A stretch of 64,000 nt of DNA from Thermoplasmatota archaeon (GCA_029762535.1 JARVGK010000002.1:64001-128000), one strand, 5' to 3'; positions 15,965 to 37,655 are shown, counted from the stretch's first letter. Notes: generated by a model not told the origin, from the sequence alone. Numbers and translations are program-made.

Positions 15965-15991
15965 AATGACTGAAAACTCGGGAAGTTCCAT

Positions 15992-17862: not shown

Positions 17863-17866
17863 ATCT

Positions 17867-17933: not shown

Positions 17934-17952
17934 TCCGAACGGAGTGATCCAT

Positions 17953-18050: not shown

Positions 18051-18161
18051 CCCGAGAGAAGCGAGAGCGCAGTGTGGTCGTGCACCGCATCCGAAGGCGA
18101 GGAGCGCAGAAGTTTCTAATTCTCCTGAACCACAGGGCTTGGCGTAGTTTTCAATAACCGG

Positions 18162-19678: not shown

Positions 19679-19914
19679 GTTATCACATTCACAGGTAAAT
19701 GTCTGCATTGTTATTTAAATGTGTATGATCCGTAACCCACCCTCACTCCGGTTATTGAAAATTTAAATCGAGAGTTAGCGAGCCATTTAATGTGTGTTAT
19801 GCCTGGTTGCGTAGCAACCGAGTATCTGTTTCTTCTGGTGTTTCGTTAAACGAAGCCAAGCCCGTTTCTGGTGGTTCAGGTTCCACGATTAAAAGGAGGG
19901 GAAAATTAGGATTT

Positions 19915-19985
19915 TCGGATAACGGACGCGGCTAACCGAAGTTCGTGGGGAGAAGGTGCTTTAGCACCCGAAGCCTTAAAATGAG
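19915..19985. repeat. Damaged attC-like site (left arm intact, right arm deleted)
   Basis: tcggataacggacgcggctaaccgaagtt matches the left arms of other sites; only ttaaaatga remains of the expected gttaaatga core. Confidence 0.65.
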
Positions 19986-20133
19986 GTCGAGGCTTCGGTT
20001 CCGAAAATCATCCTGCCGCCGTAGTTTTTTCTTGCTCTGTTTTTATTCATCTTTTCGTTATCCGTCGTGGGGGGTGTTCCGGTATTCTCTATTCTGCTTG
20101 TTTTTTTCCAAAATGCCTCAATACTCGTATGCT

Positions 20134-21542
20134 TCATATAATCTCCCAGCGTCCTTCCTTTCGACCGCCCGTGCGTCTGAGCAAACCATCGGATTGCAGT
20201 TTTTGGATGTTTCGTTCTATTGATCGTTCAGTAACTCCTATAAGAGAAGCCAGTTCAGGAATTGTTATTGTGTCGTTCTTTTCGATCTCCTGCAATATCT
20301 TTCCTGACGTTTTTCCAACGCTTTCCCGACGCTTTCTCTGGCGATTCCTGTATATAAAAGCGGAATCGCGGTAGTGAATACCGGTCCATCCATATACTTT
20401 GGAACGCCGTCGGGCGTGTAATGAGGTAGATACTTCCCGATATTCATCATCCCGGATCCAATTTCTTCCACCCAGCTCAGTTGTGCAAAGAACTTTGCAA
20501 TAACGGGATTCTTGGAGAAGGGCACCACTTTTTCGGGGTCAAGGACTCCCTCGACCCTGTAGTTGCTTGCGTTAGTGGTTTCTACACGATCTTTGTAAAT
20601 TATCAATCGGGCTGGATGGGCGTTCATGTATTCGCGATGCACCAGAAAATTAGCAATAACTTCCCGGAATATCTTATCGCGTAGACTTATCCTAGCGTCT
20701 CCTTCCAGGTAAAATGGGTCTGGAAGATGTTTGGCAATAAAGGCCATGAGCCGGTCGTATGCTTCAATGAGATTGCAATCTATACGGTCGCGGTCGTCAT
20801 AATGGTCCATCTGAACCCGGCGAACCATGGCATCGATCTTGTAATGAGGTAAAACACTCCGTATGGTCTCGTCTTTTCCCAGTAGCAGGATGGCAGCAAG
20901 GGTATAGCCCTCATTCCCGGTTTCCTGATCCTTTCTGAAAAGCCCGGCCTTGAGCAACAGCTGCTCATCGTCCAATTCTCTCCACGGATGATTCGGTCCA
21001 CGGGTTAATATGAGATTACGAAGCCTGGGCAGCATGTCCAAACGCAAATCGTCAAGAGTTGTGGCAGAATAAATTATGTTCTCGGTGTATGTCGCCCGCT
21101 TCCGGTTACTAATCTCCGCGATCCGGTGGGGCTGGGTCACACGGAAATCGCCATCATTGCTTCGGTCGAAGACAACACCGTTGGTTTTATGCACCTAGGA
21201 ACTAGCAGGCACTGAAATATGCATGATCTTCTTTCCATCAAGAACATGTATAACGGGATGGAGGATGAACGGCGGATCCAGCTTTTGAGTATTATTGGAA
21301 AGATTGACCATATCTGTTTTCATCTTATCGATGGATTGCGGATCGATTCCCAATACCCTTCCTTGATCATCAACTCCGAGAAGAATGTCTCCTCCGTCCC
21401 GGTTCAGCATTGCACATATTGTTTCGAATAAACTCGTGGGAAGAGATTTTCTTGCTTCCTTGTATTCTACCCGGATACCCTCGCCCATTGCAAGCAGATG
21501 TTTAAGGCGAATTTGCATCGGGTCACTTTGCATTTTTCTCAT
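20134..21542 (-). pseudogene. Schlafen/AlbA_2 + HATPase_c_4 + wHTH protein with in-frame TAG and C-terminal frameshift
   Basis: VPASS*VHKT with TAG at 21195-21197; IFREVIANFLVHREY; the HTH ILQEIEKNDTITIPELASLIGVTERSIERNIQKL...RWEII lies in another frame ending at 20134. Confidence 0.85.
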
Positions 21543-21672
21543 CCTCTTTCATCTGTTCTTCCATCATGATCTCGAACTGTCTTGATATGAGCCAACCTTT
21601 CCTTTTACAGTAATCTCTGTATTTATTATAGAGATTTTCATCGAACCTTAAAGTAACGTTCTTTGAAGGCAT
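21523..21672 (-). CDS. Small RHH/CopG-like protein (49 aa), cassette leader gene copy 2
   Basis: Manual translation MPSKNVTLRFDENLYNKYRDYCKRKGWLISRQFEIMMEEQMKEDEKNAK. Confidence 0.85.
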   Translation of the reverse strand: MPSKNVTLRFDENLYNKYRDYCKRKGWLISRQFEIMMEEQMKEDEKNAK

Positions 21673-21916
21673 TTTAATCACTCACTGCACATACTTACAA
21701 ATGCATATAAATGCATCATTTTTGTTATATGACACCCCCCCCACGCCCGTTGAGCAAGAAAAATTTGGGTGAGCGGAGCGAACCATTTAACCGGTGTTAT
21801 ACTGGGTTGCGAAGCAATCTGGCACATGTCGTTATTCTCTTTTCGTGTGGGTTAAACGAAGGCGGCAGGAATAGATGATTTTCGCTTGTCTGGCCAATGC
21901 CGGGAGACGAAAAATT

Positions 21917-22016
21917 TCATTTAACGGACGCGACTATGCGAAGTTGCGTAGCGAAGCGGAGCAATTTGGGTCGAGCGAAGTGCAACGAGCGAGCCGTATA
22001 GTCGCGAGTTATCCGA
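21917..22016. repeat. attC-like hairpin
   Basis: ttAAC-gga-CGCGACTATGC-gaagtt...aatttgggt...gcc-GTATAGTCGCG-a-GTTat. Confidence 0.9.
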
Positions 22017-22060
22017 TCCGAGCTATGCGAGGATGAGCATCTTTGATGCGAACGTCGGGT

Positions 22061-22483
22061 TCAGTGGTTTTTATTAGCTATATTAAAGAGTTCTTTCGTC
22101 GAGAATCTCTTTAATTTGTCCTGTCTATCAAAATCCTTATCTTCAGTCCATATCCCACTTGCCTTAACCGCCAAACCTAAAGCTAGAAAGGGCGTATCTT
22201 TAATATCGATATCTTTCATGATTTCTTCAGCGAGTTCAAGATGATCTATGAATACATCCGATGGAATCAATTCGATTCTCTCGAGAATTGATAATAATAT
22301 GATGTCAAATTCTCTATCGGTTAACTTTGATTTTTCGATTAGGTAATGTCGATATTTTTCTATCTCTGTTATTACGTAATCTGGAGCAATAAAATTGAAC
22401 TCCTCATTGAAGATGATCTTTCTTGTTTGTGAATCTTTGATCAATCCAGCCATGATTCTATTTGAATCTATGACCATCTTCAT
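22061..22483 (-). CDS. PIN-domain (VapC-like) toxin
   Basis: VIDSNRIMAGL, EIEKY, DIKDTPFLAL, IWTEDKDF. Confidence 0.9.
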   Translation of the reverse strand: MKMVIDSNRIMAGLIKDSQTRKIIFNEEFNFIAPDYVITEIEKYRHYLIEKSKLTDREFDIILLSILERIELIPSDVFIDHLELAEEIMKDIDIKDTPFLALGLAVKASGIWTEDKDFDRQDKLKRFSTKELFNIANKNH

Positions 22484-22713
22484 GCGGATTGCTTCCTTTT
22501 GTAATGTTTGTAGATGCCTTCTTTGACCTTTTCATCGAGAGCCATGACTTCTTCTTCAGTCAGTTCGCTCTCTTGAGTCAAAGAGTCAAGCAATGCCAAC
22601 TTCTTTGCATAATCGGATATTGCCCTTCTAGCAATCTCGCTCCATCTGATCTCGCTGTGTTGTTTCATGATCACATGAATATCTGAAGGTACCGATAGGG
22701 TTATGTTGGGCAT
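22480..22713 (-). CDS. RHH-type antitoxin (VapB-like)
   Basis: MPNITLSVP...EIRWSEIARRAI; ATGA-coupled to the PIN gene. Confidence 0.8.
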   Translation of the reverse strand: MPNITLSVPSDIHVIMKQHSEIRWSEIARRAISDYAKKLALLDSLTQESELTEEEVMALDEKVKEGIYKHYKRKQSA

Positions 22714-22730
22714 ATGATTACCACACAGGC

Positions 22731-22755
22731 ATATGTGATATCACATATTTATTAA
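22731..22755 (-). promoter_or_regulatory. TA promoter: TATA-like box plus perfect 18-bp palindromic operator
   Basis: atatgtgatatcacatat (22731-22748) is self-complementary and abuts TTAATAAA on the minus strand upstream of the antitoxin ATG. Confidence 0.7.
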
Positions 22756-22779
22756 TTGCCGTAACCACTGAACCCGATG

Positions 22780-22879
22780 TCGGATAACGGACGCGACTAT
22801 GCGAAGTTGCGTAGCGAAGCGGAGCAATTTGGGTCGAGCGAAGTGCAACGAGCGAGCCGTATGAGCGCGAGTTAAGTTC
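22780..22879. repeat. attC-like hairpin
   Basis: Identical to the 21917 site from taacggacgcg through gagccgtat; ends in GTTaagttc. Confidence 0.9.
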
Positions 22880-22972
22880 CCCGAGCCGAAGTTATCCGTA
22901 AGGATAACGTAGGCGAGAGCGCAGCGTGGTCCGGAGTTATCGAAGATAACGACGGAAGTTGACCAGGATCAA

Positions 22973-23143
22973 TTAAGAAAACAATATCAAATATACAATG
23001 AATATCAGTATTATACTAAGGAGAATATAAAAGGGAATACTCTTGCCTTTTTTTGCTAAATAGATTAATAACCCTATAATAGCAAGGATAAATGAAAGAA
23101 GACAACATCCCGGAATTAATAAAAAATATGTTGGCATTCCCAT
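22973..23143 (-). CDS. Small two-TM membrane protein (56 aa), single-gene cassette
   Basis: Manual translation MGMPTYFLLIPGCCLLSFILAIIGLLIYLAKKGKSIPFYILLSIILIFIVYLILFS; AGGAG SD 7 nt upstream; fills the cassette exactly. Confidence 0.75.
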   Translation of the reverse strand: MGMPTYFLLIPGCCLLSFILAIIGLLIYLAKKGKSIPFYILLSIILIFIVYLILFS

Positions 23144-23174
23144 TAATATTCTCCTGTAAAAATGCTGGTCAATT

Positions 23175-23274
23175 GAACTTAACGGACGCGACTATGCGAA
23201 GTTTGCGAACGTAGTGAGCAAATTTGGGTGAGGGGCGGGCCGAGCCCCGAACCGCATAGTGGCGTGTTATTCGC
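23175..23274. repeat. attC-like hairpin
   Basis: ttAAC-gga-cgcgACTATGC-gaagtt...aatttgggt...aacc-GCATAGTggcg-t-GTTat. Confidence 0.9.
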
Positions 23275-23344
23275 CCCGAGCCGTAGGCGAGAGCGCAGCG
23301 TGGTCCGAAGTTATCCGAAGGATAACGAAGGAAGTTGAGGGGGT

Positions 23345-23743
23345 CTAATGCCCGGATAAGAATTCGGAAGATTGAATGATCCTCACGCTATCATATTGCT
23401 TGATCTTCAGTAAATGATTATCTCCCGAAATGATATATTCAGCCTTTCCTAAAATTGCTGTTTCCAAGACCATGTTATCCTTTGGATCATCTTCGATGAC
23501 ATATAGAGAATCTGTTATGAAAACGAGATCAGACATCAAGATCAAACTTTGAATGAAAGCATGGATCTTATCATCCGGGACATGGAACTTTTTTCGAAGA
23601 ACCATCTCAGTTTCTGAAAGAATCTGTTCGGAGGTGACAGATCTTATTTTTCCTGACTTGCATCTTGTCAATAATGACCTTTCATTCCCATTCCAGAAAA
23701 AGCCAGAGATGAGAATGTTCGAATCAAGGACTATCCGGACCAA
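23345..23743 (-). CDS. PIN-domain toxin (PIN_3 type)
   Basis: IVLDSNILISG, DDPKDNMVLETA, YIISGDNHLL. Confidence 0.9.
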   Translation of the reverse strand: MVRIVLDSNILISGFFWNGNERSLLTRCKSGKIRSVTSEQILSETEMVLRKKFHVPDDKIHAFIQSLILMSDLVFITDSLYVIEDDPKDNMVLETAILGKAEYIISGDNHLLKIKQYDSVRIIQSSEFLSGH

Positions 23744-23746
23744 AGA

Positions 23747-24013
23747 TCAATTCTCCTTGGATCTGATTTCCTTTATTGCTTTAAGTACATCTGATTTCTT
23801 TAACATCTTCTCCTTGGCGAAATCACTTCCCCAATGGAGAAGATTTTGGAAATCCTCATCGGTGGGGATGTCGATCTTTTTCAGGACTATCGTTTCGTTC
23901 TCTCCATACATGGCAAAGAACTCACCGGGTTTGAATCCGAGGAGTTCGCGAAGGTCTTTCGGTATCACGATCTGCCCTTTGGAGGAGAGCCTTGTGATGG
24001 TTACTTCGGACAT
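23747..24013 (-). CDS. AbrB/MazE/SpoVT family antitoxin
   Basis: TRLSSKGQIVIPKDLRELLGFKPGE; inverted repeat agtaaga-cca-tcttact (24021-24037) just upstream of the ATG. Confidence 0.9.
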   Translation of the reverse strand: MSEVTITRLSSKGQIVIPKDLRELLGFKPGEFFAMYGENETIVLKKIDIPTDEDFQNLLHWGSDFAKEKMLKKSDVLKAIKEIRSKEN

Positions 24014-24087
24014 GGTAATAAGTAAGACCATCTTACTATTTCATTTTTTCGGGTACTTGTAGACGATCACATTAAACCCCCGAAATT

Positions 24088-24182
24088 GCGAATAACGTCC
24101 TGGGGATATGGGAAGTTGGCCGAAGGCCAATTTGGGTGAAGGGTCTGCAAGACCCGTAACCTCATATCCCCATGTTATCTTC
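24088..24182. repeat. attC-like hairpin
   Basis: atAAC-gtcc-TGGGGATATG-ggaagtt...aatttgggt...aacct-CATATCCCCA-t-GTTat. The stem sequence differs from other copies but still pairs. Confidence 0.9.
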
Positions 24183-24322
24183 CCCGAGCGATAGCGAGAG
24201 TGCAACGGGGTCGAGGCACGAAGTGCCGAAGAAGTTTGAAACCCTGCCGTAAATTCCGTTGTTGCCGTAGTTTTTTCTTACTCTATTCATCGTTCACGTT
24301 CTCCGTGGGGGTGTTCCGTTTA

Positions 24323-26920
24323 TCATGCTTTCAACTCTAATTTTTCATTAAATGCTCCAATGAAATTTGTTTTCAGATCTTCATTGTAGAATGGAAGCCC
24401 GATAATTTTGTATTTCGTATTTTCTGCCAGTATCTCGATTTGATAATTTCCTTCAATGTTTGTTAGGAATTGCTGTTTCCAGTCATCTTTTTCAAGTAAG
24501 TGACTTCCTTTCGGTTCGATGAAAACCTGGTAATAGAGAATTTGTTTGGTTTTTTTCTCTTTTAAGAATAGGACAAAATCTGGTTCAAGAGAATTTCCAT
24601 CTGAAAAGCGATAAAGCTGGAAAATTTTCTGGTTTCTAAGTAGATATATATCTGAATATCTTTTTTGTAATTTATCAATTGCATCGTTTATGAATCTTAC
24701 AAAGTATTTCTCTTCTGATGTTCCATAATTTTCTTCATATACATACCAGTCCTTGTTTTTTAGGTCTAATCGTAAATCTAGTTTTAGAGTTTCACTCATC
24801 CCAATACCGATTTCTTTGTCAGATGTGTCATTTACTGCGATATTGATTATTTTGTCTTCTACTAAATCTTTAATTTTGCTTGCTTTGAATAATATAGTCC
24901 CGACATATTCAGTATAACCAGATTCGATATTGCTTTGAAGTTTCTTCAAAACCTCTGTACATATTTCCAGTTTATCATCACAATTGAGTGAATCTAATTT
25001 TGTAATTGAAGTCGTTACCTCTACCTGAACATCTTTTAAAGCTTCAATGAACTTGCTGATAGATTTTGATTTAGGGAAATATTTTTTCAGGTTATTAAAT
25101 TTGTAAAAATCCAACCTGGTTAGAGATTTTCGCATAATTTGAATTCCGAAGTCGTTCAGTTTAAAAATCTTTGATCTTTTCTCTTCAACATCTTTCTTCT
25201 TTTCCCCGTTGAATATAGTAGAATCTCTAACATATCCTGTTCTGAGACCAATTTTATACAATTTATCGATGTCCAAATCTGATATATCCTTGATTTTAGT
25301 TCTATCTGATTTTTTCTTTTCGTTGATGAATATCAGGCCATTAGACCAAAAATCTGATTTCTTAAACCCATCTTTGACTTTCAAATGGATTTCTCGCTTT
25401 TCCGGTGGCATGATGCCAGATTCCACCAAAGCTGTAGTCAATTCTTGAATGTATCTTGGGTTATGGGCACTGTGGTAATAAAGCTCTTCAAGAATTTTCA
25501 ACTCGTTGTTTGGTTCCTCATCGTATTTTCTCTTGAATCGCTCCTGTTCATCTGTTATTGTGAAAGGAAAATATCTAGCGCCTCTCCCGATAAGTTGGGC
25601 TTCTGCGATGGTCGTTTTACCAGGCTTCCCTGCTTTTGCATCTCTAGTATCATAAAGTCTTACAATGTCAAATAGATTGAGAACATCCCAACCTTCGTTA
25701 AGCATACCGACTGCAAAAACAACCCGAATTTCGTTATCTTTATCCTCAAGCGAATTAACTAGTAACTGTTTCTTTTCACTCTCACTTTTAGAATTGACTG
25801 ATAAACACTTATTCTCATGAAATTCTTCTTTAATCTCTGATACCAAATTCTCCAATGTAATGTCATTTTCTTCAAAATAATTAAAAGCCGTATTAAGAAT
25901 CGATTTTTGTTCAACATTGTTTTTTATTTTTGATATGTCGCTAATTTTCAAGGATTTGATCTTTTTCTTAAATTCATCTTCAATAGTGGTAGATTCATCA
26001 ATGGTTCTGGATTTCAACAGGATTACTGGCTTAATAAATTTCTTATGCTTTTCTGCAATCTTTCGTCTATATTGACTTAGGATGACTGACTGTAATGTCC
26101 TTTCTATTGGCTTTAAATCTGCCTCCATCACTTTGACTTCCTTTGAATACCCGTCTAATCTAAACTGTTTTAATGAGTAATCATAGATTATTTTACTATC
26201 GTATTTATCTCTAATTGCTGGATGACTCAAATCAACGGTGGCGGTATACTCCAGCATGATATTTCCCAGGTTTGAATTGAAGATATTATTTACGGTATGT
26301 TCCCAGGTAGTTTTGGCTAATTTTTCTTCCTTACCCAATTTATTCTTTGTCCAAGCATTGATATGGTGGGCTTCATCGGAAATGATTACGATTTTTTTAT
26401 CCTTGAAGTCCTCGTAAGTCATGCTGTTCTCGCGCGGGGTATTCATGAAACAGTGAAGCCCCTGGATTGTGGTAAAATGGATATTGATCGCATCAGGGTT
26501 AGCACCCTCGAAATTTTCTACCGGACTAATGAAAACCTCTTTTTCTCCAAATTTTATGTGTTCGTTGAACAGATATTTTGATGAAAGTAGATTTAAGAAA
26601 TTATCTTTAGTCTTTTCTATGATGTTGGTACTATTCACAAAGAAAAGAAAATTCCGATAACCTTTCTCATAAAGATAGAGAATATTGGCGGCCATCAATA
26701 ATGTTTTTCCGCTTCCAGTGGCCATGTGAAACAGCAATTGCGTTGGTTTGATTCTCCTTTTATCTTTTTCATAATTATAAATGAATCTGCGTATAGCTTC
26801 CAGTTGATATTCTCTCAATTCAAACAAATGATTCAGATTATTTGTAATATTGTCTGGAATCTCAGTACCCAGCAAGCCCTGTTCTGAAAGAACATCATAC
26901 GTTTCCTTCAAAGTGGGCAT
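24323..26920 (-). CDS. res: Type III restriction enzyme Res subunit (DEAD/DEAH helicase + PD-(D/E)xK)
   Basis: HMATGSGKT, SDEAHH, LNEGWDVLNLFDIVRL, QLIGRGARYFPF, EPDF...IEPKG. Confidence 0.9.
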   Translation of the reverse strand: MPTLKETYDVLSEQGLLGTEIPDNITNNLNHLFELREYQLEAIRRFIYNYEKDKRRIKPTQLLFHMATGSGKTLLMAANILYLYEKGYRNFLFFVNSTNIIEKTKDNFLNLLSSKYLFNEHIKFGEKEVFISPVENFEGANPDAINIHFTTIQGLHCFMNTPRENSMTYEDFKDKKIVIISDEAHHINAWTKNKLGKEEKLAKTTWEHTVNNIFNSNLGNIMLEYTATVDLSHPAIRDKYDSKIIYDYSLKQFRLDGYSKEVKVMEADLKPIERTLQSVILSQYRRKIAEKHKKFIKPVILLKSRTIDESTTIEDEFKKKIKSLKISDISKIKNNVEQKSILNTAFNYFEENDITLENLVSEIKEEFHENKCLSVNSKSESEKKQLLVNSLEDKDNEIRVVFAVGMLNEGWDVLNLFDIVRLYDTRDAKAGKPGKTTIAEAQLIGRGARYFPFTITDEQERFKRKYDEEPNNELKILEELYYHSAHNPRYIQELTTALVESGIMPPEKREIHLKVKDGFKKSDFWSNGLIFINEKKKSDRTKIKDISDLDIDKLYKIGLRTGYVRDSTIFNGEKKKDVEEKRSKIFKLNDFGIQIMRKSLTRLDFYKFNNLKKYFPKSKSISKFIEALKDVQVEVTTSITKLDSLNCDDKLEICTEVLKKLQSNIESGYTEYVGTILFKASKIKDLVEDKIINIAVNDTSDKEIGIGMSETLKLDLRLDLKNKDWYVYEENYGTSEEKYFVRFINDAIDKLQKRYSDIYLLRNQKIFQLYRFSDGNSLEPDFVLFLKEKKTKQILYYQVFIEPKGSHLLEKDDWKQQFLTNIEGNYQIEILAENTKYKIIGLPFYNEDLKTNFIGAFNEKLELKA

Positions 26921-26921
26921 G

Positions 26922-28928
26922 TTATAACACTCCGTAGAAGCGTTTGTTTATTTCTTTGTCCTCGTCTGATACGCCATAATCCTCGTCATCAATTTCGTTG
27001 AAATTAACATAAAGCTGATTTTTATCCAGACACTCAATTAGGAATGCCTTTTGGTTCTCCAAGTCCAAGTCCTTGAAATCTTGAGCATTTTCATCGAATT
27101 GCTTCGGATCTATTCTGTAACTAAGGAAAGCTTCTTTTTTCATCTTATCCCATATTGCCAATAAATCTTTTATTGTCTTTGCTTCTTGAATTTTATCCAT
27201 ATAGGATTCATTCCATTTCATCAGTTCACAATAAATAAATTCACCACCACCTTCCCACTTTACATATTTTGAGATACCAGATTGATCATAATTTTCAATT
27301 TTCTCTATTAATTTACCCTTTGAGTTTGCATTTCCGATAACATTTTTTAATCTCATAAGCGAATCATTTTTACCATAATCCAATTGTTCTATGCCGAGAT
27401 ATTTTCTACCCAACTTATGCGCAACTGCACATGTTGTACCACTACCTAAGAAGAAATCCAAAACAATATCTCCCTTATCAGTTCCCATTTCAATTATTCT
27501 CCTTAAAAGTTTTTCTGGTTTTTTACCACGTTTTAATTTAACATTACCTTCATTAGCAATTCCTTCCCAAGGTATATCCGTCCATATATTTGATAATAAA
27601 TTTGTTGGAACGAGATTACCATCAATGTTTCTAACCTTGTTATTATAAAAAGTAATTTCTTTTCCATTTAAGATATATCTATCAGTTAAATTATCTCTTC
27701 GATTAACAAATACTTTATCCAGATTCTTCAAAGATTCTTCCTTTATGTCTAATGTTTCCTTTCCAGCATCAATGTTTATTTCTGTAAATCGAAAGACTCT
27801 TTCCTTATTATTCAAGGCATAGTCCGCTAATTCAGATAAAGTACGATTTGTTCCTAATTCTTTTTTTAAATATCGACTATTTTTAACCTTAAACTTTTCC
27901 GCAATAATATCTTTAATATTTGAATAAGTCCAATTTGATGGGTTTTCTTCAATATTGTCTATCTGAAATGAATAATTTTCATCATAATTAGTTTCTTCGT
28001 ATTGAGTGATGTACTTCCACAACTTTTTAGACTTTGCATAAATTAATATATATTCGGCACTTTCAAAAACTCCCAAATTTACAGTTTTAAAACCAGACGG
28101 AGATCGAGTTTTTATACTAATAAGATTAATGAAATTATTATCAAATATTTCATCTAGTAATATTCTTAATCTGGATACATGAATGTCGCTAATTTGAATG
28201 AAAATGGCCCCATCCTTACATAGTAATTCTCGTGCAATTTCTAATCTGTTTTTCATAAATGTAAGCCATGTTGAGTAGTTAAAACTATCATTATACTGAA
28301 ACTCATCATTCCCTGTATTGTAGGGAGGGTCAATGTAAATTAATTTAATTTTTCCAGCATATCTTTTTTTCAATGAATGCAAAGCAAGGAGATTATTACC
28401 TTTAATCATGATATTATCTGTTGTTTTAATTTCTTCTATGTTATGCTCTCCTTTTGCATCAATCCGTTTTAAACCAGTCAATACTTTAGGATCGAATAAT
28501 CTGTCAATCTCATCAGGAGCAAGAATTTCATTCCAAAATATTTCTTTGCGATTTTTTTCTTCGGGATCTTCCATTCCGCCTTCCAAAACGCAATCTTTGT
28601 ATGGCCAGGATAGAACCACTTCACTACTTTTTGTTAGGTATTCGTTTTGTGTTGTAAGTCCAATCTTGTTTTTGAAAGTGGTGTACGAATCTGGTAAGAA
28701 TTCTTTGTTATCAACGAATTTCATGAATTTTTCTTTGTCAAAAATGATTGCTTTATTTACAATTTTAAAGAAATGCACTTTTAATTTTTCGTTTTCAAGA
28801 AGGAGGGAAATCAGCTCATCATCGAGTTTAAGACCAAGTTCGATTATTTTATTTTTCAATAATTTATCATCTGAAACTAAACGTTCATCCTTTTTTAATG
28901 TGTCAATCATTTCATCAATTAACGTCAT
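26922..28928 (-). CDS. mod: Type III R-M DNA methyltransferase (Mod, N6-adenine)
   Basis: IKGNNL, IYIDPPYNTGND, KKPEKLLRRII, VLDFFLGSGTT. Confidence 0.95.
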   Translation of the reverse strand: MTLIDEMIDTLKKDERLVSDDKLLKNKIIELGLKLDDELISLLLENEKLKVHFFKIVNKAIIFDKEKFMKFVDNKEFLPDSYTTFKNKIGLTTQNEYLTKSSEVVLSWPYKDCVLEGGMEDPEEKNRKEIFWNEILAPDEIDRLFDPKVLTGLKRIDAKGEHNIEEIKTTDNIMIKGNNLLALHSLKKRYAGKIKLIYIDPPYNTGNDEFQYNDSFNYSTWLTFMKNRLEIARELLCKDGAIFIQISDIHVSRLRILLDEIFDNNFINLISIKTRSPSGFKTVNLGVFESAEYILIYAKSKKLWKYITQYEETNYDENYSFQIDNIEENPSNWTYSNIKDIIAEKFKVKNSRYLKKELGTNRTLSELADYALNNKERVFRFTEINIDAGKETLDIKEESLKNLDKVFVNRRDNLTDRYILNGKEITFYNNKVRNIDGNLVPTNLLSNIWTDIPWEGIANEGNVKLKRGKKPEKLLRRIIEMGTDKGDIVLDFFLGSGTTCAVAHKLGRKYLGIEQLDYGKNDSLMRLKNVIGNANSKGKLIEKIENYDQSGISKYVKWEGGGEFIYCELMKWNESYMDKIQEAKTIKDLLAIWDKMKKEAFLSYRIDPKQFDENAQDFKDLDLENQKAFLIECLDKNQLYVNFNEIDDEDYGVSDEDKEINKRFYGVL

Positions 28929-31405
28929 TTCTTTTCCTCCTTATTATTCGAAATTAAATTCCAGTTTACGCTTCCACAATTACATCTTACGCCACTTTGT
29001 TTCATTCCATCTGCTGTAATTTTCAATATACCACCACAACTATGACATGAAAAGAGATAATATAAATCTTGAAATGCCTCTTTTATAGGTCGAAAGTCTT
29101 TATCACTAAAGTTTATCCAATTATTAAAATGAACGTTTGCATTAATTCCCCATTGTTCAGCATATGTGCGTTTATAAATGCTAGAACGCATTGAATCTAA
29201 TTCTTCAAATTTTGCCGTCTTTTCTGATTTTTCCCAGGAAACTGATGATTTTTTAGCCTTTTTAATTAAGTCCTTATATCCATCCATTAATGGTATTGTA
29301 AAATCACCAAGATCTAGCTGGCCGTTTAATTTGTATCGTACTCGTATCTGTAATGAATCACACACTAGCCCAAAATACTCTTCCAAACCGCGTCTTAATC
29401 TCGAAGCAGCAGAAGGAACATCGTTTCTTGTCAAATCTTCTTCAATTTTACTCCAGAGGTCTGCTTGAAGATTTACTTGAGGCCCTGTATCAACTTTCCA
29501 ATTATAGAATTCAACCATGCAACTCTTATTATCAACAACTCCTTCACTTCTCATTTGATTAGCCCATGTCTTATCATGGGTTGTGATTAAAAATTGTCTG
29601 TTTGGGAAATTTGATGCAAGCACGCGACAAATATCTCGCCTATGATTCGAATCCACAGACATTATTACATCATCTAAGATAATGAGGTCAATAAGACCTT
29701 CTGCCAAACGTTCAGATAGAGCCAAATATAAACAAAGCCCCATACTATCTTGATGACCTTCACTGTGGAGGGCTTGTGGAGAAAAAGCCCCTCGGCCATA
29801 AAAATCAACTTCAAATTTTAATGCCGCCCCATCTGGTGAAATAGTCGCGGAAAAATCTTTTTCGTCTGAACCATGTAATTCTTTATATAATTGCACAAAG
29901 CGATCATTTACATCTTTGTAAAGATTTCCCAATATAGTATCTCTGGAATATTCAAATGTATTTAACAATATCTCTGCTTTTTTATATGAGATACTTGCGT
30001 TTTTAAAATCATTTTTTGCTTTTTCAAGACCTTTTAAATTTTCTTCAAGGCGTGTTAATGTATCCCACGCAGTTTGTTCAGGGGTTATCGGTGGCGCTTT
30101 GGTTTTAACAATTTCTATTAGAGTTTGAAGATTTTGTTTAATTTCCTCAGAAATAAGCATGTGTTTTACTCTGTCGCTATCAAATTCGATCAATGGATAT
30201 TTTTCGAGTGGATTAGCTAATGCTATGGATAACTGATTCAAATCTGACGAACATGTTTTCAATTGGATGCTCCATTCCTTTTCCTCAATTTTATTTAATA
30301 CCTCAATTATTTTATTTATGCTTCCTCTTGTATTGTTCACACGCTTTGATATGGAATCGGACAAAGATGTAATTCTGTTTCTTTGTTGTGATATTTCTTC
30401 AATATCAGTCAATTTTGAGGTAAGATATTCATCTAATTTACCGCTTGGCCACTGTGTATCACACAATGGGCAGTTACCCGTGTCATCGATCATAGATTTT
30501 CCAAGTTCAATTAATTGAAATCGATTGTATGTTTTCAATAATTTCGGATTCGATTTTATAGAGTTTAGAAGATTTCTAAGTTCTTTATCAAATTCAATGA
30601 TTCCTTTTTGATTCTTTTCGTCAAAGGAATTATGAATATTTTGAATATCTTTTTCAAATATAGTAAGATTGACATGATTGTCGTTGATAATACTGGTAGG
30701 TGGCGTAAGGGCCTTTTTTAACGTATCTGAAGAAACCGAATTCAATTCATTACTTTTTAATGTTTTACGTAATTGATTTACGTAATCCAGTAGCATCTTT
30801 TCATTAAATGATGTTGTTTGAATTGTTGCGTTAACCTCACCTTTTTTCTCATCTATTGCTTCTTCTTTTGTCTGCTTTTCTCTTTTAAAAGTATTTTCAA
30901 TATTTACAAATGCTTTTCTTATTATTTCAATGTCTGATATATTTAATAATGCTTGAATCTCCTGGGCACGTGTACTACCATCAGAGGTAATATATTTTAA
31001 AATTTCTCGTCTTGTTAATACATGTTCTCCCCTCGATGCAAGGGATAAAATGGGTTCAAGATTAGGTAAATATTTTTCATCAGATACAACTAACTTAGTG
31101 GGTTGTGCCATATCTCTTTTTATTTCAATAGGAACATTAATTTTTGGAAATTGAATAACTGCACGTACAATAGCATCTTTTGGCTTGTGATCAATATGTG
31201 GGCCACATTCTTTCAATTTGATATTGCGAGTTCCCTCTCCCTTTAAACGAGAAATTCGACCTGTTAAGAGGAAATCAATGGCATCAACAACAGCACTTTT
31301 CCCTGAACCATTTGGCCCCCATATTACTATATTTTTTCCTTGGGGCGTTAGTTTTATATGGGTTATACCCCGCACATTTTCAATTTCAAGCTCAATCAGT
31401 TTCAA
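28925..31405 (-). CDS. Rad50/SMC-like ABC ATPase with zinc hook and possible C-terminal HEPN (RloC-like)
   Basis: GPNGSGKS, coiled coils, CPLC hook, HSEGHQ signature, ILDDV, ITTHD; C-terminal LRRGLEEYF...INANVH. Confidence 0.7.
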   Translation of the reverse strand: MKLIELEIENVRGITHIKLTPQGKNIVIWGPNGSGKSAVVDAIDFLLTGRISRLKGEGTRNIKLKECGPHIDHKPKDAIVRAVIQFPKINVPIEIKRDMAQPTKLVVSDEKYLPNLEPILSLASRGEHVLTRREILKYITSDGSTRAQEIQALLNISDIEIIRKAFVNIENTFKREKQTKEEAIDEKKGEVNATIQTTSFNEKMLLDYVNQLRKTLKSNELNSVSSDTLKKALTPPTSIINDNHVNLTIFEKDIQNIHNSFDEKNQKGIIEFDKELRNLLNSIKSNPKLLKTYNRFQLIELGKSMIDDTGNCPLCDTQWPSGKLDEYLTSKLTDIEEISQQRNRITSLSDSISKRVNNTRGSINKIIEVLNKIEEKEWSIQLKTCSSDLNQLSIALANPLEKYPLIEFDSDRVKHMLISEEIKQNLQTLIEIVKTKAPPITPEQTAWDTLTRLEENLKGLEKAKNDFKNASISYKKAEILLNTFEYSRDTILGNLYKDVNDRFVQLYKELHGSDEKDFSATISPDGAALKFEVDFYGRGAFSPQALHSEGHQDSMGLCLYLALSERLAEGLIDLIILDDVIMSVDSNHRRDICRVLASNFPNRQFLITTHDKTWANQMRSEGVVDNKSCMVEFYNWKVDTGPQVNLQADLWSKIEEDLTRNDVPSAASRLRRGLEEYFGLVCDSLQIRVRYKLNGQLDLGDFTIPLMDGYKDLIKKAKKSSVSWEKSEKTAKFEELDSMRSSIYKRTYAEQWGINANVHFNNWINFSDKDFRPIKEAFQDLYYLFSCHSCGGILKITADGMKQSGVRCNCGSVNWNLISNNKEEKK

Positions 31406-31595
31406 GTTCTTCCCTCGAAGTAGTTTTTAATACGCTGATAATTTTTTTAGTATCAGCTAATTGTCCTGTTGAATTAAGTTCACGAAGCTTATTGATGGTC
31501 ACCACATTAAATTCATCTTTATCATTGAGGTCTGAAAACATTTTATCAAGTATGTGGTCAATCAATGAAGATGTTTGTATTGTTTCGGGAGTCAT
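31392..31595 (-). CDS. Small hypothetical protein translationally coupled to the ATPase
   Basis: 67-aa ORF overlapping both neighbours, with a GGAGGT SD. Confidence 0.65.
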   Translation of the reverse strand: MTPETIQTSSLIDHILDKMFSDLNDKDEFNVVTINKLRELNSTGQLADTKKIISVLKTTSREELETD

Positions 31596-31732
31596 TTATT
31601 TACCTCCTTCATCTGTTCTTCCATCATAATTTCAAATTGTCGGGATATGAGCCACCCCTTCTTCTTACAGAATCCTTTGTATCGTTCGTAAAGGTCTTCA
31701 TCAACACTGAGGGTTACGTTCTTTGAAGGCAT
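31592..31732 (-). CDS. Small RHH/CopG-like protein (46 aa), cassette leader gene copy 3
   Basis: Manual translation MPSKNVTLSVDEDLYERYKGFCKKKGWLISRQFEIMMEEQMKEVNK; ATGA overlap; CTTATATA TATA box upstream. Confidence 0.85.
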   Translation of the reverse strand: MPSKNVTLSVDEDLYERYKGFCKKKGWLISRQFEIMMEEQMKEVNK

Positions 31733-31993
31733 GATAATCACATTCATCTCCAAATGTCAGCAAATGTATATAAGTATTCGCTTTTTCCGTTTCTATTCGT
31801 TGTTCGGAACACCCCCCACGTCCATAGAGTAAGAAAAAATTTGGGTATTCGCTTTGCGAATCCGTTTAACATCCGTTAGCCGAGAGTCTGGACTTGTCCA
31901 GATTTTGGTGGTTCTTTCCGTCTTGTTTCCGTTAAACGAAGGCAACAACGTCATGAATTTACGGTCTCCTTTTCATAGGCATGGTTTCAAATT

Positions 31994-32111
31994 GAAGATA
32001 ACGGAACGCGGGTATGCGAAGTGAATATGTTTCCAGTGCGGTTCCTCAGCAGAGTATTCATTTGGGAGAGCGAGTGCAACGAAGCGAACCGCATACCCGC
32101 GTGTTAAGTCC
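31994..32111. repeat. attC-like hairpin (most proximal)
   Basis: atAAC-gga-ACGCGGGTATGC-gaagt...atttggga...aacc-GCATACCCGCGT-GTTaag: perfect 12-bp stem with a 3-nt bulge next to the core. Confidence 0.9.
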
Positions 32112-32434
32112 TCCGAATGAAGTTATCCTACGGATAACGAAATGAGAATGCAATGAGATCGAGCACCGCAGACCGTTAGGTTGAGGAGCGGAGAAGTTGG
32201 CCAGCCAAGAACGTTGTTCGGGACACGGTGGATTTTTTACTACCAATCTACCCCACAAGGGTTATAGGTCGAGGGTGTCTTGCTTGTAAGTCGAGGGGTT
32301 TGAAATACTTGTCAAACCAAGATTTGACCATGGCGAGGTTTACTATCTTTTGGGTTATCGTTCTGACCATTATTATTTTAGAGTTGCAATATGATTTGTT
32401 CAAATTTTCTGATGAATTCGTAAGTAAAAGAGAT

Positions 32435-35400
32435 TCAATCCTCCTCCTTTATTGGTTTGATGGTTCGAAGGTTCAAAGAAAAAGATCGCCCCTCGATATT
32501 TTCTTCTGGGATATCATCATATCTCGTTATAATAACCTTATCATCAACTTTATCACTGAGGTTTTCCACATTCCATAACTCCCATCGATCCCCACCTTCT
32601 TCCTGACTTAAAAGGAATTCCACATATTCCCTAGAGGTTATGTTTACAATTTTGGAAGAACCTAAATGTGCCTTGACTTCGATCTTAATTTGTTCTCTAT
32701 CACGAATAGCAATGATATCATAGCCTGGATTCTGTTTGGGCATTTGTTCAACTTCGAATCCTTTTAATTCTAACTCTCTTTGAGCAAATGATCTTCCTTT
32801 AGTTTCTATCATCTCATTGTCCTCATATGATGTTCTGTTCCCAGATTTGCCACCACCACCGCCACCAGATGAACCCTTAGTTTCCTCATCAACTCTCTCC
32901 TCTGTATTAACTTCATATTCAGAGTCGTCATCCTTTAATTGAATACCTTCATCTTCCTCTGAATCTGGAGTTCTTTCTTCTCTATTTTGCTCATCAAGTA
33001 ATTTTTCCTTATTGTCTTCTTCACTTTTTGTCGGTTGTTTCGGCTTTTTAGGAAGCATACCAGGAAATGGCTTCTTCGATGGTGGAGTTGACTTTTGTTG
33101 ATCAGAGTCTTTGTGTTTTACATAGTCGTTATTGAATTCTAAAAAAGAGATATCGATCTGTTCATCTGATATTCCGCTGGAAGTCAATTTTTCTCGTCTT
33201 TCGTAATCATTATTACACCTTAAAAGATTTTCATAAGTGTCGGCTTCTCCTGGCACTCCTAAATAAAACGATATTGATCGAGATATTGTAGTTACACTTT
33301 GTTTATCTTCACTTATGAATATTGTTGAACCAACAATGTAAAAATCTCCGGATATTTCGGTTTCATACTTATCAAGTAGTATCAATTTTTTTCGAATTTC
33401 CTTTTTTACTTTAACTTTGATATTTTTAATTCTTTGAATCAATTTCTGATGATCTGATAGTTTATCCGATCTTATCACATATATGTATGAAAGACTGTCA
33501 ATTAGATTTTTCGCCAATTCCGGTTTCAATTGTTTCTCATCATCATTTGTCTCAATTATTTCTTCCTTCAATATATTCTTATCACTAATTTGACGTTTTC
33601 CAAAATACTTACTTACAAACTGGTGATATCTTCTAGATATATTGAAAAAATAAACATCATTATTAAAAGCATTTTTAATCTCCACATCATCATTAATGAA
33701 TATCTCTTTGCTACTTATAATTTGAAATATATTGCTTCTTTCACATAAAAGGGGACAATCATGAAGCAATAATTCAGGAAGTGCTACCATCAAACTATTT
33801 GTTGTATCTAAACATCTTTCGTAGATTTTCATTATTTTGAATCTTAATTCTCGATTATCATTTATATCTTCATCTGAAATGAATTTTATTAATAGGTTGG
33901 ATAATATTTCTTTCCATTCTTCAGGTTTTAATTCATCAATATTTGTTCTAATAATTTTCACTTTATTCTTTAACCAATGAAAAATATTATCCTTTGAACT
34001 CTCAAAAAGATTTAAATTGATAACTGGTAATAAATACCCTATTTCAAAATTATCTTTTTCATTTAATATCCAACATTCTTCCAATGGTTTAGGATCTAGA
34101 TAATGTGTAAGAGGAGGTATGAACTTTGTTTTTAAATCAAACCACCATGATGCATCTGAGTTTCCATAATATAATGCTCTGTTGTATGGTCGATAGTGTA
34201 CTCGAATATTCATATATTCTTCATAGTATTCCCAATTGTTTGCTATTAACTTTAATAAGGATATTTTAGATTTTTCAGGCAATTCGTCTAAATTTATTTT
34301 ATCAAATCTTTTATTATAACTGATTTTTTCAACATTATTATAATCTTCATTCACATGTATCGGAATTTCTTCTGTAGAAATTAATCGGGGAAATGTTTTA
34401 CACCCTAACCATCTTAAGATATCTTGATCAATTATTTTCTCTAAGCTATTGTTTTCTTTTTGTACCCATTGTATATCGTAATGATTGCGAAATAATGAGT
34501 TCAAATCACTATTGCCCCATTCTTTTCCCATATATCCAAATTTGGCTTTTATCCATATAACATCTTTTTTCCCCTTCCTTCTAGATGGAATTGGACAATT
34601 TCTAATTCCTACGGGTGCATTTTCTTCTTTCATCAACCATTTATTTTTATAGATATATCGATAATATATTGAGGGATTATCTTTTTGATTCTTGTTCCTA
34701 CTATCCCAATAATTCTCAATAGCTTTAATTAAAGCTTTTTCTGTAACATTTTCAATTCTCTCTACACCCAATGTTGCTAGGATTTTGTTGACTGAATGAT
34801 GGTTTTCCAATAACTTATCCCCAAACCATTCATCAACAAACACTATCGGCATCCATTTAGGTACGAGATTTTTCTTGTCTTGATCAGATTTCCAAGTGAT
34901 GATTTGACCCTTTGAATTGGCAATTGATATCAGATGATTACCAACAGGAAGTATTGGTAGACTTTTTATAATCTCAATTTTCTCCTCTTCATTGATTTCA
35001 TCTGAATCATGATTAGCCCAATTAGAGAGCCATTTCCAACAAGTCCAAATCCAATCAATATTTCCTGTATTTTTAGATGACTCTTCATTGATTACACTTA
35101 GTAACGTATTATCATCAATCAAACTGCAGTTCATGGATTTTAAAACGTTATATGAAACTTCATTCTCCTCATAACTGAAATGTAACAAGTTGTCACTAAT
35201 ATTTGATGTATTTAAAATTTTACGGGCGTTTGTCAAATCACATGTTGTTGATATAAGCTTTATATCAGAGAAATTTAATAATTTTTCTCCATTAATATTG
35301 CCGAATTTTAAAGTGTTCTTTGAATAATCAACAATCACATCCCAAAATAATTTGGTGATTTCATGACTGTTTCTCTCCTCAAATGGTGATAACAATGTAA

Positions 35401-36532
35401 TATTATTTGCTGGATCACCTTTTAAATATTGCTCATCCACAAATTCAACTAATGTATGAACGAGATTATCCATTATCCATTTATTTAGATTATTATTCTC
35501 TATCGGAAGAATTTCCGTTCTATCACTTTTTACAAAAAAATCCGCATGAAGAAGTATTGGAACTGGGGAGTAGTGTTTTGTCGGATAATACACATGGATT
35601 TTTGGGTAATCGGTCATAGATCTGATTTTACCATCAATGACATATGTACCAACCAGGAAATTAATTCCATCTTCGATAATTCTCGCATTATCTTCTTTAT
35701 CAAGGTTAGATAAGAAATAAGGTGGAATCATATCACCCGACATCGTTTTTCGTTTGATTTTCCATTTCGTTACATCTTCAACGCCATCAATGGTATCATT
35801 GATTACATTTTCCTTATCTATTGTTATTTTCCTTAAGGTTTTACTTGAACCAACAGCATCAATTATCTCCAACATTCTAATATGATGAAATGTTAGGAGA
35901 GTATAATTTTTCAATGAAATTTTATCAAATAATACTTCGTTATCAATTTCCTCAAGATAATTCAATTTAACTACAGTTGACCAATCCGATTGAGAGGTTA
36001 GATATTGATCATTCAAAGAAATATCATCCCAGGATATCGAAAAAGGGATCCATTGATATGGTACATCATCATCTGGAAAACCATTATTTTGTAACCATTG
36101 TTTCGCCTTTTCAAATGAGAATTCTACTCCCTCTCCTCCTATGCTAAATATTTGTGGATTATTTGAAATCTCATAAACAGCTTTGAATCCTAATCCCTTT
36201 CTTCCGATGGTCCCAGATTTTTTAATTGAATAATCCGTTCCACACAAAGATTCAATAGCATCTGGCTGTAATCCTACTCCCTTATCCAAGATATAGACCG
36301 ATTTATCGGTCAACAAAACCTTTACCTCTTTAGATTCTGCATCATCACAATTTTGGAATAATTCGTAAAACCATCGTCCAGTGTGGTCAGAAGTTACTCT
36401 TTCTGCACTTCTTGTGTCTCTGATGATTCGTTTGGGATCTCCTTTATATGTCCCTTGTAATTTTTGGTTGAATAAATCAATTGCCTTTTTAATAGGTTTC
36501 AATATACTATCACCATCGACATACACAATCAT
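32435..36532 (-). CDS. Sacsin/Nov-like GHKL ATPase with C-terminal DUF3883 (PD-(D/E)xK) domain; first cassette
   Basis: YELFQNCDDA, IGRKGLGFKAVY, LLHADFFVKSDR; C-terminal PGYDIIA...KIEVKA; visibly AT-rich. Confidence 0.8.
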   Translation of the reverse strand: MIVYVDGDSILKPIKKAIDLFNQKLQGTYKGDPKRIIRDTRSAERVTSDHTGRWFYELFQNCDDAESKEVKVLLTDKSVYILDKGVGLQPDAIESLCGTDYSIKKSGTIGRKGLGFKAVYEISNNPQIFSIGGEGVEFSFEKAKQWLQNNGFPDDDVPYQWIPFSISWDDISLNDQYLTSQSDWSTVVKLNYLEEIDNEVLFDKISLKNYTLLTFHHIRMLEIIDAVGSSKTLRKITIDKENVINDTIDGVEDVTKWKIKRKTMSGDMIPPYFLSNLDKEDNARIIEDGINFLVGTYVIDGKIRSMTDYPKIHVYYPTKHYSPVPILLHADFFVKSDRTEILPIENNNLNKWIMDNLVHTLVEFVDEQYLKGDPANNITLLSPFEERNSHEITKLFWDVIVDYSKNTLKFGNINGEKLLNFSDIKLISTTCDLTNARKILNTSNISDNLLHFSYEENEVSYNVLKSMNCSLIDDNTLLSVINEESSKNTGNIDWIWTCWKWLSNWANHDSDEINEEEKIEIIKSLPILPVGNHLISIANSKGQIITWKSDQDKKNLVPKWMPIVFVDEWFGDKLLENHHSVNKILATLGVERIENVTEKALIKAIENYWDSRNKNQKDNPSIYYRYIYKNKWLMKEENAPVGIRNCPIPSRRKGKKDVIWIKAKFGYMGKEWGNSDLNSLFRNHYDIQWVQKENNSLEKIIDQDILRWLGCKTFPRLISTEEIPIHVNEDYNNVEKISYNKRFDKINLDELPEKSKISLLKLIANNWEYYEEYMNIRVHYRPYNRALYYGNSDASWWFDLKTKFIPPLTHYLDPKPLEECWILNEKDNFEIGYLLPVINLNLFESSKDNIFHWLKNKVKIIRTNIDELKPEEWKEILSNLLIKFISDEDINDNRELRFKIMKIYERCLDTTNSLMVALPELLLHDCPLLCERSNIFQIISSKEIFINDDVEIKNAFNNDVYFFNISRRYHQFVSKYFGKRQISDKNILKEEIIETNDDEKQLKPELAKNLIDSLSYIYVIRSDKLSDHQKLIQRIKNIKVKVKKEIRKKLILLDKYETEISGDFYIVGSTIFISEDKQSVTTISRSISFYLGVPGEADTYENLLRCNNDYERREKLTSSGISDEQIDISFLEFNNDYVKHKDSDQQKSTPPSKKPFPGMLPKKPKQPTKSEEDNKEKLLDEQNREERTPDSEEDEGIQLKDDDSEYEVNTEERVDEETKGSSGGGGGGKSGNRTSYEDNEMIETKGRSFAQRELELKGFEVEQMPKQNPGYDIIAIRDREQIKIEVKAHLGSSKIVNITSREYVEFLLSQEEGGDRWELWNVENLSDKVDDKVIITRYDDIPEENIEGRSFSLNLRTIKPIKEED

Positions 36533-36716
36533 ACTTTAATCGTGGACCTTTGTTTATTTTTGCGGTCATAAACATCATTTTCCGAACTTGTTCTATGCTT
36601 TTACCATATTTATAAGCTTCTTTGCTTTCACCCAAGCTCCATGTTATTACACCCTCAACCTATTCTTTCCAAAAAATCCACCGTGTCTTTTTACCCCGAA
36701 GTCTGGCTGGCCAATT

Positions 36717-36742
36717 GGACTTAACTCCTATCATGCGATGTG
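36717..36742 (-). other. attI-like primary recombination site
   Basis: ggacttAAC (minus strand G|TTAAGTCC) complements the first cassette's own core at 32103-32111. It has no hairpin partner, keeps a catgcgatgt motif like the att left arms, and lies ~130 bp upstream of the integrase. Confidence 0.75.
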
Positions 36743-36854
36743 TTGGATCGGATACTTTCACTTTCACATGGTTATTGCGAAGATTTATTAACCCGGGATC
36801 CTCCTTTGGTTTCATGGGATCATACCCGGACATGGATAAGGAGATGGTGAATAT

Positions 36855-37655
36855 ATGAATGTTTCCGAAAAGGGCAGGGAGAGAATGCTGGCTCGGCTGG
36901 ATGAGGAGATGAGGCTTCGGAAGTATTCGCCTGCGACAATGAAGCAGTATCTCGGATTCATCAAGAGGTTCCTTGATTCCGGATCCGATCCCCGGAGCTT
37001 CATGCTGGGTCTCTCCGACAGATGCTCACGATCCACGGTCCGATCCGCTTACTTCTCCCTGACGTTCTTCTATCGATATGTCCTTCATCAACCCTTCGAC
37101 GAGGGGATCCCCCTCGCAAAGCGCGGTGGGAGGCTTCCAACGGTACTCAATCGCGAAGAGGTCCATTCCATGATCGATAGCGCCGTGAACGTTAAGCACA
37201 AGGTCCTGCTGATGCTTCTGTATTATGGTGGCCTAAGGCTCAGCGAGGCTCGATCCCTGCGCTGGGAGGGTCTCGATTTCGAACGGGGGATCATCCATAT
37301 AAAGCACGGGAAGGGGGATCGGGATCGGGTCGTCTTTCTCCATTCCAGGCTTGCAGAGGCGCTTTCCGTATTGGGGGTTAAAAGCGAAGGTTGCGTATTG
37401 ATCTCTTCGGTCTCCAAAGGAGCCTATACACCAAGGGGTATCCAGTTGACTGTCGCGGATATCGCTAAACGGGCGGGGATAAAAAAGAGGGTCAGTCCCC
37501 ATACGCTTCGGCACAGCTTCGCGACCCATCTCCTTGAGGCCGGGGCTGACGTCAGGCACATACAGAAGCTTCTGGGGCACAGGAACCTGTCGACAACACA
37601 AGTATACACCCACATCGCCGACCGGGAAATGATCAGGATAGTTTCCCTGCTCTGA
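36855..37655 (+). CDS. Tyrosine recombinase/integrase (Xer/IntI-like, lacking the IntI-specific insertion)
   Basis: N-terminal LRKYSPATMKQY, RLPTVLNREEV, GLRLSE (R), GKGDRDR (K), HTLRHSFATHLL (HxxR), LLGH (H), TTQVYTH (Y); catalytic set intact. Confidence 0.95.
   Translation: MNVSEKGRERMLARLDEEMRLRKYSPATMKQYLGFIKRFLDSGSDPRSFMLGLSDRCSRSTVRSAYFSLTFFYRYVLHQPFDEGIPLAKRGGRLPTVLNREEVHSMIDSAVNVKHKVLLMLLYYGGLRLSEARSLRWEGLDFERGIIHIKHGKGDRDRVVFLHSRLAEALSVLGVKSEGCVLISSVSKGAYTPRGIQLTVADIAKRAGIKKRVSPHTLRHSFATHLLEAGADVRHIQKLLGHRNLSTTQVYTHIADREMIRIVSLL

Follow-up and report, generated by a model that had tools for sequence, protein, structure and literature searches.

A window of 64,000 nucleotides, the whole stretch of DNA analyzed here, from a probable Thermoplasmatota archaeon carries five pairs of 9-mers, which raises the question of whether the segments between them are gene cassettes once inserted as circles and, if so, which kind of recombination system inserted them. 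The initial annotation had read these pairs as a recombination footprint, and a direct check of the window found all ten 9-mers where it had placed them, with each of the five pairs being exact reverse complements. The pairs comprise five different sequences, perfect pairing of all five arises from only 1 of the 120 possible start-end assignments, and 25 of 25 variable positions match (p ~9e-16, assuming uniform base frequencies); chance is excluded as the source of this pattern. The accompanying statement that the two 9-mers of an integrated hairpin do not match beyond the core holds in substance, with agreement at the chance level of 7/25 variable positions (counted by eye in the five integrated hairpins), but not literally.

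Organization of the cassette array

The array is read along the minus strand, starting at an attI site (G|TT at 36725) beside the gene for a 266-aa tyrosine recombinase, so that the cassette starts are the ends first described as right ends, not the left ends. In this direction, each unit begins with GTTA and five variable bases and ends with their complement and TAAC, after which a structured body of 77-100 nt leads to the next GTTA. Measured from G|TT to G|TT, the units span 395-7906 bp, in agreement with the sizes of 0.4-7.9 kb annotated earlier, and the GC content of the cassettes is 0.33-0.42, compared with 0.53 for the genome. The array extends leftward at least to 13846 with decayed sites, a part that had been overlooked. 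The features of the platform and array are as follows:

36855..37655, plus strand: tyrosine recombinase, 266 aa, divergent from the array
36784..36791, plus strand: TATA-like box, identified by eye, with a similar box at the same place in relatives
36748..36781, minus strand: two conserved upstream repeats of attI
36717..36739, minus strand: attI core, comprising a Xer-like left arm, a 6-bp spacer whose last base is the G at 36725, and the TTA of cassette 1
32002..36724, minus strand: cassette 1, 4723 bp; outer pairing arms 36704-36716 and 32195-32207
31999..32106, minus strand: att body 1, three-way junction, from TAAC to GTTA
24096..32001, minus strand: cassette 2, 7906 bp; outer arms 31983-31993 and 24233-24243
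24093..24177, minus strand: att body 2
23183..24095, minus strand: cassette 3, 913 bp; outer arms 24077-24087 and 23333-23343
23180..23269, minus strand: att body 3
22788..23182, minus strand: cassette 4, 395 bp; outer arms 23165-23174 and 22957-22966
22785..22874, minus strand: att body 4
21925..22787, minus strand: cassette 5, 863 bp; outer arms 22763-22779 and 22053-22069
21922..22011, minus strand: att body 5
19923..21924, minus strand: cassette 6, with a decayed att body
17961..19922, minus strand: cassette 7, with a decayed att body (weak model match at 17958-18045)
13849..17960, minus strand: segment 8, closing in an intact att body at 13846-13933
4609..13848, minus strand: probable eroded array tail, with one att remnant near 13302

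The 9-mers at the start and end of segment 8 are mismatched, and this segment is therefore probably a rearranged remnant. Target-site duplication and transposon ends were both rejected, since no target is duplicated and no transposase is present among the ORFs scanned.

Structure of the att sites

A common plan underlies the 22 att bodies of the window and related loci, consisting of TAAC, a stem of 11-12 bp, a side hairpin with CCC at its end, a second arm that starts with AAAT and closes on ACTT, the stem partner, a bulge of 2-3 nt, and GTTA. In these 22 sites, extrahelical bases are absent from the stem and the whole side hairpin is extruded instead, while the spacer is paired and covarying, with only the bulge of 2-3 nt in one arm left unpaired. 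Covariation reaches 0.458, compared with 0.144 for shuffled alignments and at most 0.135 for slid controls, and involves 19 of 27 pairs; in a larger set of 69 sites, whose alignment was fitted to the model, 23 of 27 pairs covary. The bottom strand is predicted to fold more stably in 66 of the 69 sites, the energies being predictions and the structure having been derived from part of the same site set. In canonical attC sites, the spacer is unpaired and two or three bases are extrahelical (PMC5027507), the latter being contacted by VchIntIA (PMC2095811); neither feature is present here, which matches the domain missing from the recombinase (see below).

Within the class, the site model matches 17 of 37 genomes, and within the phylum, 21 of 121. 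An Rfam search gave no match up to E 1, and three members of the recombinase family (L087, L093, and L117) have no att body within the DNA examined.

Pairing between the ends of a cassette

Beyond the window, a 9/9 match between the two ends of a cassette was found in 30 of 49 cassettes (25 of the 44 outside the window), compared with 3 of 74 in-situ hairpins; permutation gave a mean of 1.5 such cassettes and a maximum of 9 in 100,000. In these 49 cassettes, position 9 matches the cassette's own end at a rate of 0.84, whereas the rate for position 10 is 0.08. End pairing resumes, however, past a side region of 30-85 nt at the cassette end, which the earlier annotation had overlooked. The match stops at 9 nt because the side hairpin interrupts a pairing that continues beyond it, in an outer arm of 14 nt that follows the start 9-mer and pairs with the cassette's own end. 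At a threshold of at least 11/14, the outer arm pairs in 26 of 31 own pairs, 1 of 31 hybrids, and 2% of cross pairs, a result reached in 0 of 100,000 permutations. In two cassettes without a side region, the second cassette of L091 (16 nt) and one in L202, the pairing is continuous. When the five window cassettes were closed into circles in silico, the 9-mer and the outer arm both paired in every one, at 7.6-18.3 kcal/mol below the in-situ hybrids. In held-out arrays, most of them distal or orphan, the rule is weaker (9-mer, 4/11 versus 1/18; outer arm, 5/11 own pairs versus 0/11), counts that were probably lowered by missed decayed sites and drift. In the structural model, the 9-mer is the inner part of one binding arm, which is split by a side hairpin like the opposite arm.

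It is also conceivable that the core operates as described, whereas the outer arms and longer end repeats are unneeded for recombination, being relics of cassette making, in which a gene was captured in the loop of an att arm, or elements acting at the RNA level. This would accommodate the longer interrupted end pairing, which is significant in 11 of 31 cassettes and extends to ~200 nt in cassette 2, well past the size of a binding site, as well as the occurrence of the same cassette frame with a Type III restriction-modification (R-M) system here and a Type II R-M system in another genome (G020). However, the first outer arm has a fixed position and shares an AAT/ACT motif with the inner arm (43/49 starts), an A-C mismatch in the outer arm becomes a T-G pair on the non-coding strand, and the outer arm of cassette 5 contains one compensatory change. 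We therefore regard such a relic as unlikely and favor outer arms that take part in recombination.

Cassette exchange in related genomes

The recombinase of one relative is 94% identical to that of the window, and the two sequences agree at 98% as far as GTTA and diverge beyond it; among the assemblies of this relative, all from one study, three stop exactly at GTTA and two run into a different cassette. GTTA is also where the contigs L090 and L096 stop and where the assembly of L089 has a gap. In another species, the first cassettes after GTT differ between strains, and one cassette is first in G004 and internal in L141, with different neighbors (87% identity, 776 nt). As had been anticipated for the core, the breakpoints of these relatives fall at GTT(A); neither breakpoints elsewhere nor a fixed gene order was seen in them, and cassettes have been exchanged at GTT. 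These breakpoints and the moved cassette support the earlier reading in part, with integron-type cassettes inserted at an attI beside a recombinase.

The crossover had also been described as defined to the nucleotide. It lies within the shared GTT triplet, but the data fix it only to that triplet, because cassette starts read GTTA, GTTG, or GTTT. The geometry of the 6-bp attI spacer, at the edge of which such recombinases cleave, and the precedent of integrons (PMC5027507) would place the crossover at G|TT, between 36725 and 36724.

Contigs of four sequencing runs contained no circle junctions, a search of contigs only that has no bearing on the absence of circles. In three of these runs (X2-X4, from one study and probably the same samples as L001-L005), cassettes 1 and 2 have low coverage and the recombinase is covered, which is suggestive only and is not counted as evidence.

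The recombinase and its attI platform

The recombinase is the sole complete tyrosine recombinase found in the genome (93% complete). Enzymes of the same family from two other genomes are listed under Thermoplasmatota at NCBI, and the best-matching sequencing run is a mud metagenome, which makes an uncultured Thermoplasmatota archaeon the probable host. Its catalytic set (R128, K153, H216, R219, H242, and Y251) is intact, and the six residues are invariant across 21 relatives. It lacks the IntI-specific insertion (I2), with 57 residues from KG..R to HxLRH, compared with 96-100 in six IntIs (IntI1 and five archaeal IntIs); its alignment to VchIntIA splits into two pieces, with ~44 residues absent from the recombinase, and that to IntI1 has gaps in the recombinase. 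The protein scores below the cut-offs of both the integron integrase model TIGR02249 (187 bits; cut-off, 265) and the XerA model (184.7 bits; cut-off, 220). Phylogenetic analysis revealed that its family forms a clade of its own (support 100/100), apart from IntI and XerA-like proteins; the deeper branches of this tree, from which 16 loci with no extracted ORF were left out, are unresolved, and we make no claim that the family is ancestral to or derived from IntI. In a fold search, XerA was the closest structure (Z 22.1) and VchIntIA gave Z 19.5, values that do not decisively separate XerA from IntI (model pTM 0.60).

The attI is conserved upstream of family members as two repeats, a Xer-like arm, a spacer of 6-7 bp, and GTT. 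It is not an 11-6-11 palindrome, since one arm is fixed and the other is supplied by the variable cassette. Judging from sequence, the two upstream repeats are likely accessory recombinase-binding sites, and the TATA-like box is probably the recombinase promoter, as by eye it suits the direction of the recombinase better than that of the array (a platform Pc). In addition, three XerA-like genes (L008, L012, and L071) have a dif-like palindrome directly upstream, the arms of which resemble the attI arm. In Terriglobia genomes (L015-L054), recombinases ~40% identical to the present one occur in dozens of near-identical copies per genome, probably representing an insertion-sequence family.

Proposed mechanism

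The conserved attI, the exchange at the GTT core, the covarying branched att sites, the pairing of cassette ends, and the missing domain indicate that the locus is likely an integron-type gene-capture platform with a Xer-sized tyrosine recombinase lacking the IntI-specific domain. Alternatively, an ordinary integron array (CALIN) may be served in trans by a true IntI, with the short recombinase as a bystander XerA: canonical IntIs occur in the phylum (4 of 151 genomes exceed the TIGR02249 cut-off), reported archaeal arrays are mostly CALINs (PMC9668308), the genome is only 93% complete, and the protein does reach 184.7 bits on the XerA model. However, this score is below the cut-off, the protein is separated from XerA-like proteins in the tree, the same attI adjoins the short enzyme throughout its family, the sites lack the extrahelical bases and unpaired spacer expected of an ordinary CALIN, and the att model has no match within the 1.5-kb flanks of five archaeal IntI genes or in a class 1 integron, all of which makes a bystander very unlikely. 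Least probable of all is a double-stranded exchange of Xer/dif-like modules (as for pdif modules) with hairpins as incidental palindromes, which would suit the Xer-sized enzyme, its structural proximity to XerA, and the dif-like arm and 6-bp spacer of attI, but double strand exchange requires spacer identity and the attI and att spacers have only GTT in common, the stems covary, to the point that both arms are shortened by one base in concert, folding is strand-biased, and pairing between distant cassette ends would have no role.

In the integron-type platform, the substrate would be the folded bottom strand of a cassette circle, in which the site would form an H-shaped double junction. Two Xer-like binding arms would flank the core, with an extruded side hairpin breaking into each arm at an identical position, and the bulge of 2-3 nt beside AAC would mark the strand for cutting. 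A single strand would be exchanged with double-stranded attI at G|TT, and the product would be resolved by replication, as in integrons. The site would be split by this exchange, so that the start of the cassette would keep the 9-mer and outer arm and its end the complementary sequences; each site in the array would combine parts of two cassettes as a hybrid, and its outer half would be mismatched. Such mismatched and presumably weaker hybrids should favor insertion over excision, stabilizing large defense cassettes. In place of extrahelical bases, the side hairpins probably serve as the structural cue, which may explain how the enzyme would do without the I2 domain.

A second insertion-less recombinase family, of 349-391 aa, has an N-terminal extension and is related to Bacteroidota proteins (L181, L176, L185, L186, and L187), with its attI located downstream of the gene in the same orientation. 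In L181 and L176, the same att type is present and the 9-mer rule is obeyed, so the pairing of enzyme and site is not one to one. A bolder proposal for the array of the window, to which we give somewhat less than even chances, is that it belongs to a separate class of single-strand cassette systems, whose Xer-sized recombinase recognizes a double junction, H-shaped and completed only by the cassette's own ends. If so, self-pairing would set directionality and may guide the excision of exactly one cassette, and the I2 domain and extrahelical bases would be dispensable for integron-type recombination.

Relationship to known systems

Integrons (IntI1/attI1/attC, VchIntIA/VCR, and sedentary chromosomal integrons) share with this system a divergent tyrosine recombinase, an adjacent attI, and a same-strand array. 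They also share the AAC/GTT core, an R-box that is complementary in the circle and not in the array, the bottom-strand folding bias, toxin-antitoxin and defense cargo, and distal-site erosion (PMC5027507, PMC5371416). R' and R'' need not match in arrays (PMC5371416), and the 9-mer footprint itself is known integron behavior (PMC5027507, PMC5371416). However, the system described here differs in the absence of the IntI-specific insertion, a stem of 11-12 bp without extrahelical bases, a paired spacer with a bulge of 2-3 nt, an R-box match of 9 nt instead of 7, a conserved three-way junction with an invariant CCCAAAT, a second junction formed from the cassette's own ends, and cassettes of up to 7.9 kb that apparently have their own TATA boxes. 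It works like an integron and lacks three of its features, the I2 domain, extrahelical bases, and an unpaired spacer, and is therefore not a canonical integron. Its unusual side is thus the enzyme, which is no canonical IntI, and the site architecture, both of which the initial annotation had passed over.

The archaeal integrons of Ghaly et al. 2022 (PMC9668308) likewise combine an archaeal host, an attI/attC-type array, and toxin-antitoxin and R-M cargo, but the IntIs found there possess the IntI-specific domain, and the attCs adopt folds like those of bacteria; the recombinase studied here would not be called an IntI, because that pipeline requires the domain. Archaeal XerA/dif (PMC8371274) and Xer acting on folded single strands (PMC5027507) are similar in enzyme size and fold, arm sequence, and 6-bp spacer. 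In contrast, the present recombinase scores below the XerA cut-off, belongs to a separate clade, and is not beside an 11-6-11 palindromic dif, whereas XerA-like loci have no att array, the site model giving no match at the 13 XerA-like archaeal loci searched. In the parts consulted of Smyshlyaev et al. 2021 (PMC8138268), the insertion of the 'Integron-like' tyrosine recombinase subgroup is called essential for integron function, and those parts describe no cassette arrays for members without it. A literature search, mostly outside subscription journals, found no description of a domain-less, double-junction system. The new elements here are the population breakpoints at GTT, the tested outer-arm rule, the reuse of a cassette frame, and the probable Thermoplasmatota host.

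The IntI-specific domain has been treated as necessary for integron recombination and used for integron detection (PMC9668308, PMC9024848), an assumption that a widespread domain-less system would make directly testable, and such a system bears on the origin of integrons from Xer-like enzymes. A soil survey recognized no complete integron in 97.4% of the contigs that carried 'integron-type' recombinases, with novel attC sites being one proposed cause (PMC13323075); a domain-less system may explain part of this gap.

Cassette cargo

The genes carried by the array are as follows:

32435..36532, minus strand: sacsin-like ATPase, 1365 aa, NOV_C domain, Tiamat TmtA-like (cassette 1)
31592-31747: RHH-like small gene (cassette 2)
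31392-31595: 67-aa ORF (cassette 2)
28925..31405, minus strand: SMC/AAA-like ATPase, 826 aa, weak LmuB-like match (cassette 2)
26922..28928, minus strand: Type III R-M methyltransferase, Mod (cassette 2)
24323..26920, minus strand: Type III R-M restriction subunit, Res (cassette 2)
23747-24031: AbrB/MazE antitoxin (cassette 3)
23345-23743: PIN toxin (cassette 3)
22973-23143: hydrophobic ORF, 56 aa (cassette 4)
22480-22713: putative antitoxin, 77 aa (cassette 5)
22061-22483: PIN toxin (cassette 5)
within 19923..21924, minus strand: RHH-like gene and Schlafen AlbA_2/HATPase_c_4 gene, the latter disrupted by a TAG and a frameshift (cassette 6)
within 17961..19922, minus strand: RHH-like gene and second AlbA_2/HATPase_c_4 gene, with an in-frame TAG (cassette 7)
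14238-17862, plus strand, reverse to the array: FmdE-like gene and FecCD-type ABC transporter (segment 8)
within 4609..13848, minus strand: co-oriented small genes, including cupin, GNATs, glyoxalase, and OmdA (eroded tail)

The TmtA match covers residues 15-1134 (E 5.8e-66), TmtA having no curated cut-off, and the adjacent mod and res genes of the Type III R-M system were recovered by PADLOC at E 7.9e-186 and 7.8e-130. Because multi-gene defense cassettes reach 7.9 kb, the array may be a main route of defense turnover in these archaea. In a related locus (L087:1-9750) with TIR/ThsB genes and an SNF2 helicase, the first cassette may exceed 10 kb, its end lying beyond the reach of the sequence. 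The TAGs at 21195-21197 and 19194-19196 occupy nearly the same codon in two divergent AlbA_2/HATPase_c_4 genes; pyrrolysine was rejected at both, as no PylS exceeded the cut-off and the codon of relatives at 21197 is a sense codon.

The same set of a leader, a TATA-like box, and a small RHH-like gene recurs in cassettes 2, 6, and 7 (31592-31940, 21523-21870, and 19541-19870), and the leader of cassettes 2 and 6 includes an inner CCCAAAT junction, the arm of which pairs with the distal end of the cassette. The G020 cassette (L129:3484-5937) has the 9-mer of cassette 2 and ends that are 78-81% identical, with Type II R-M cargo instead. One cassette frame with different cargo touches the question of how cassettes are created. 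Elsewhere in the genome, a solo and apparently gene-less mini-cassette (L182:10460-10622; G000:C6 near 76.5 kb) has 9-mers matching at 8/9, an outer arm, and a full body, and is inserted at a non-attI G|T site.
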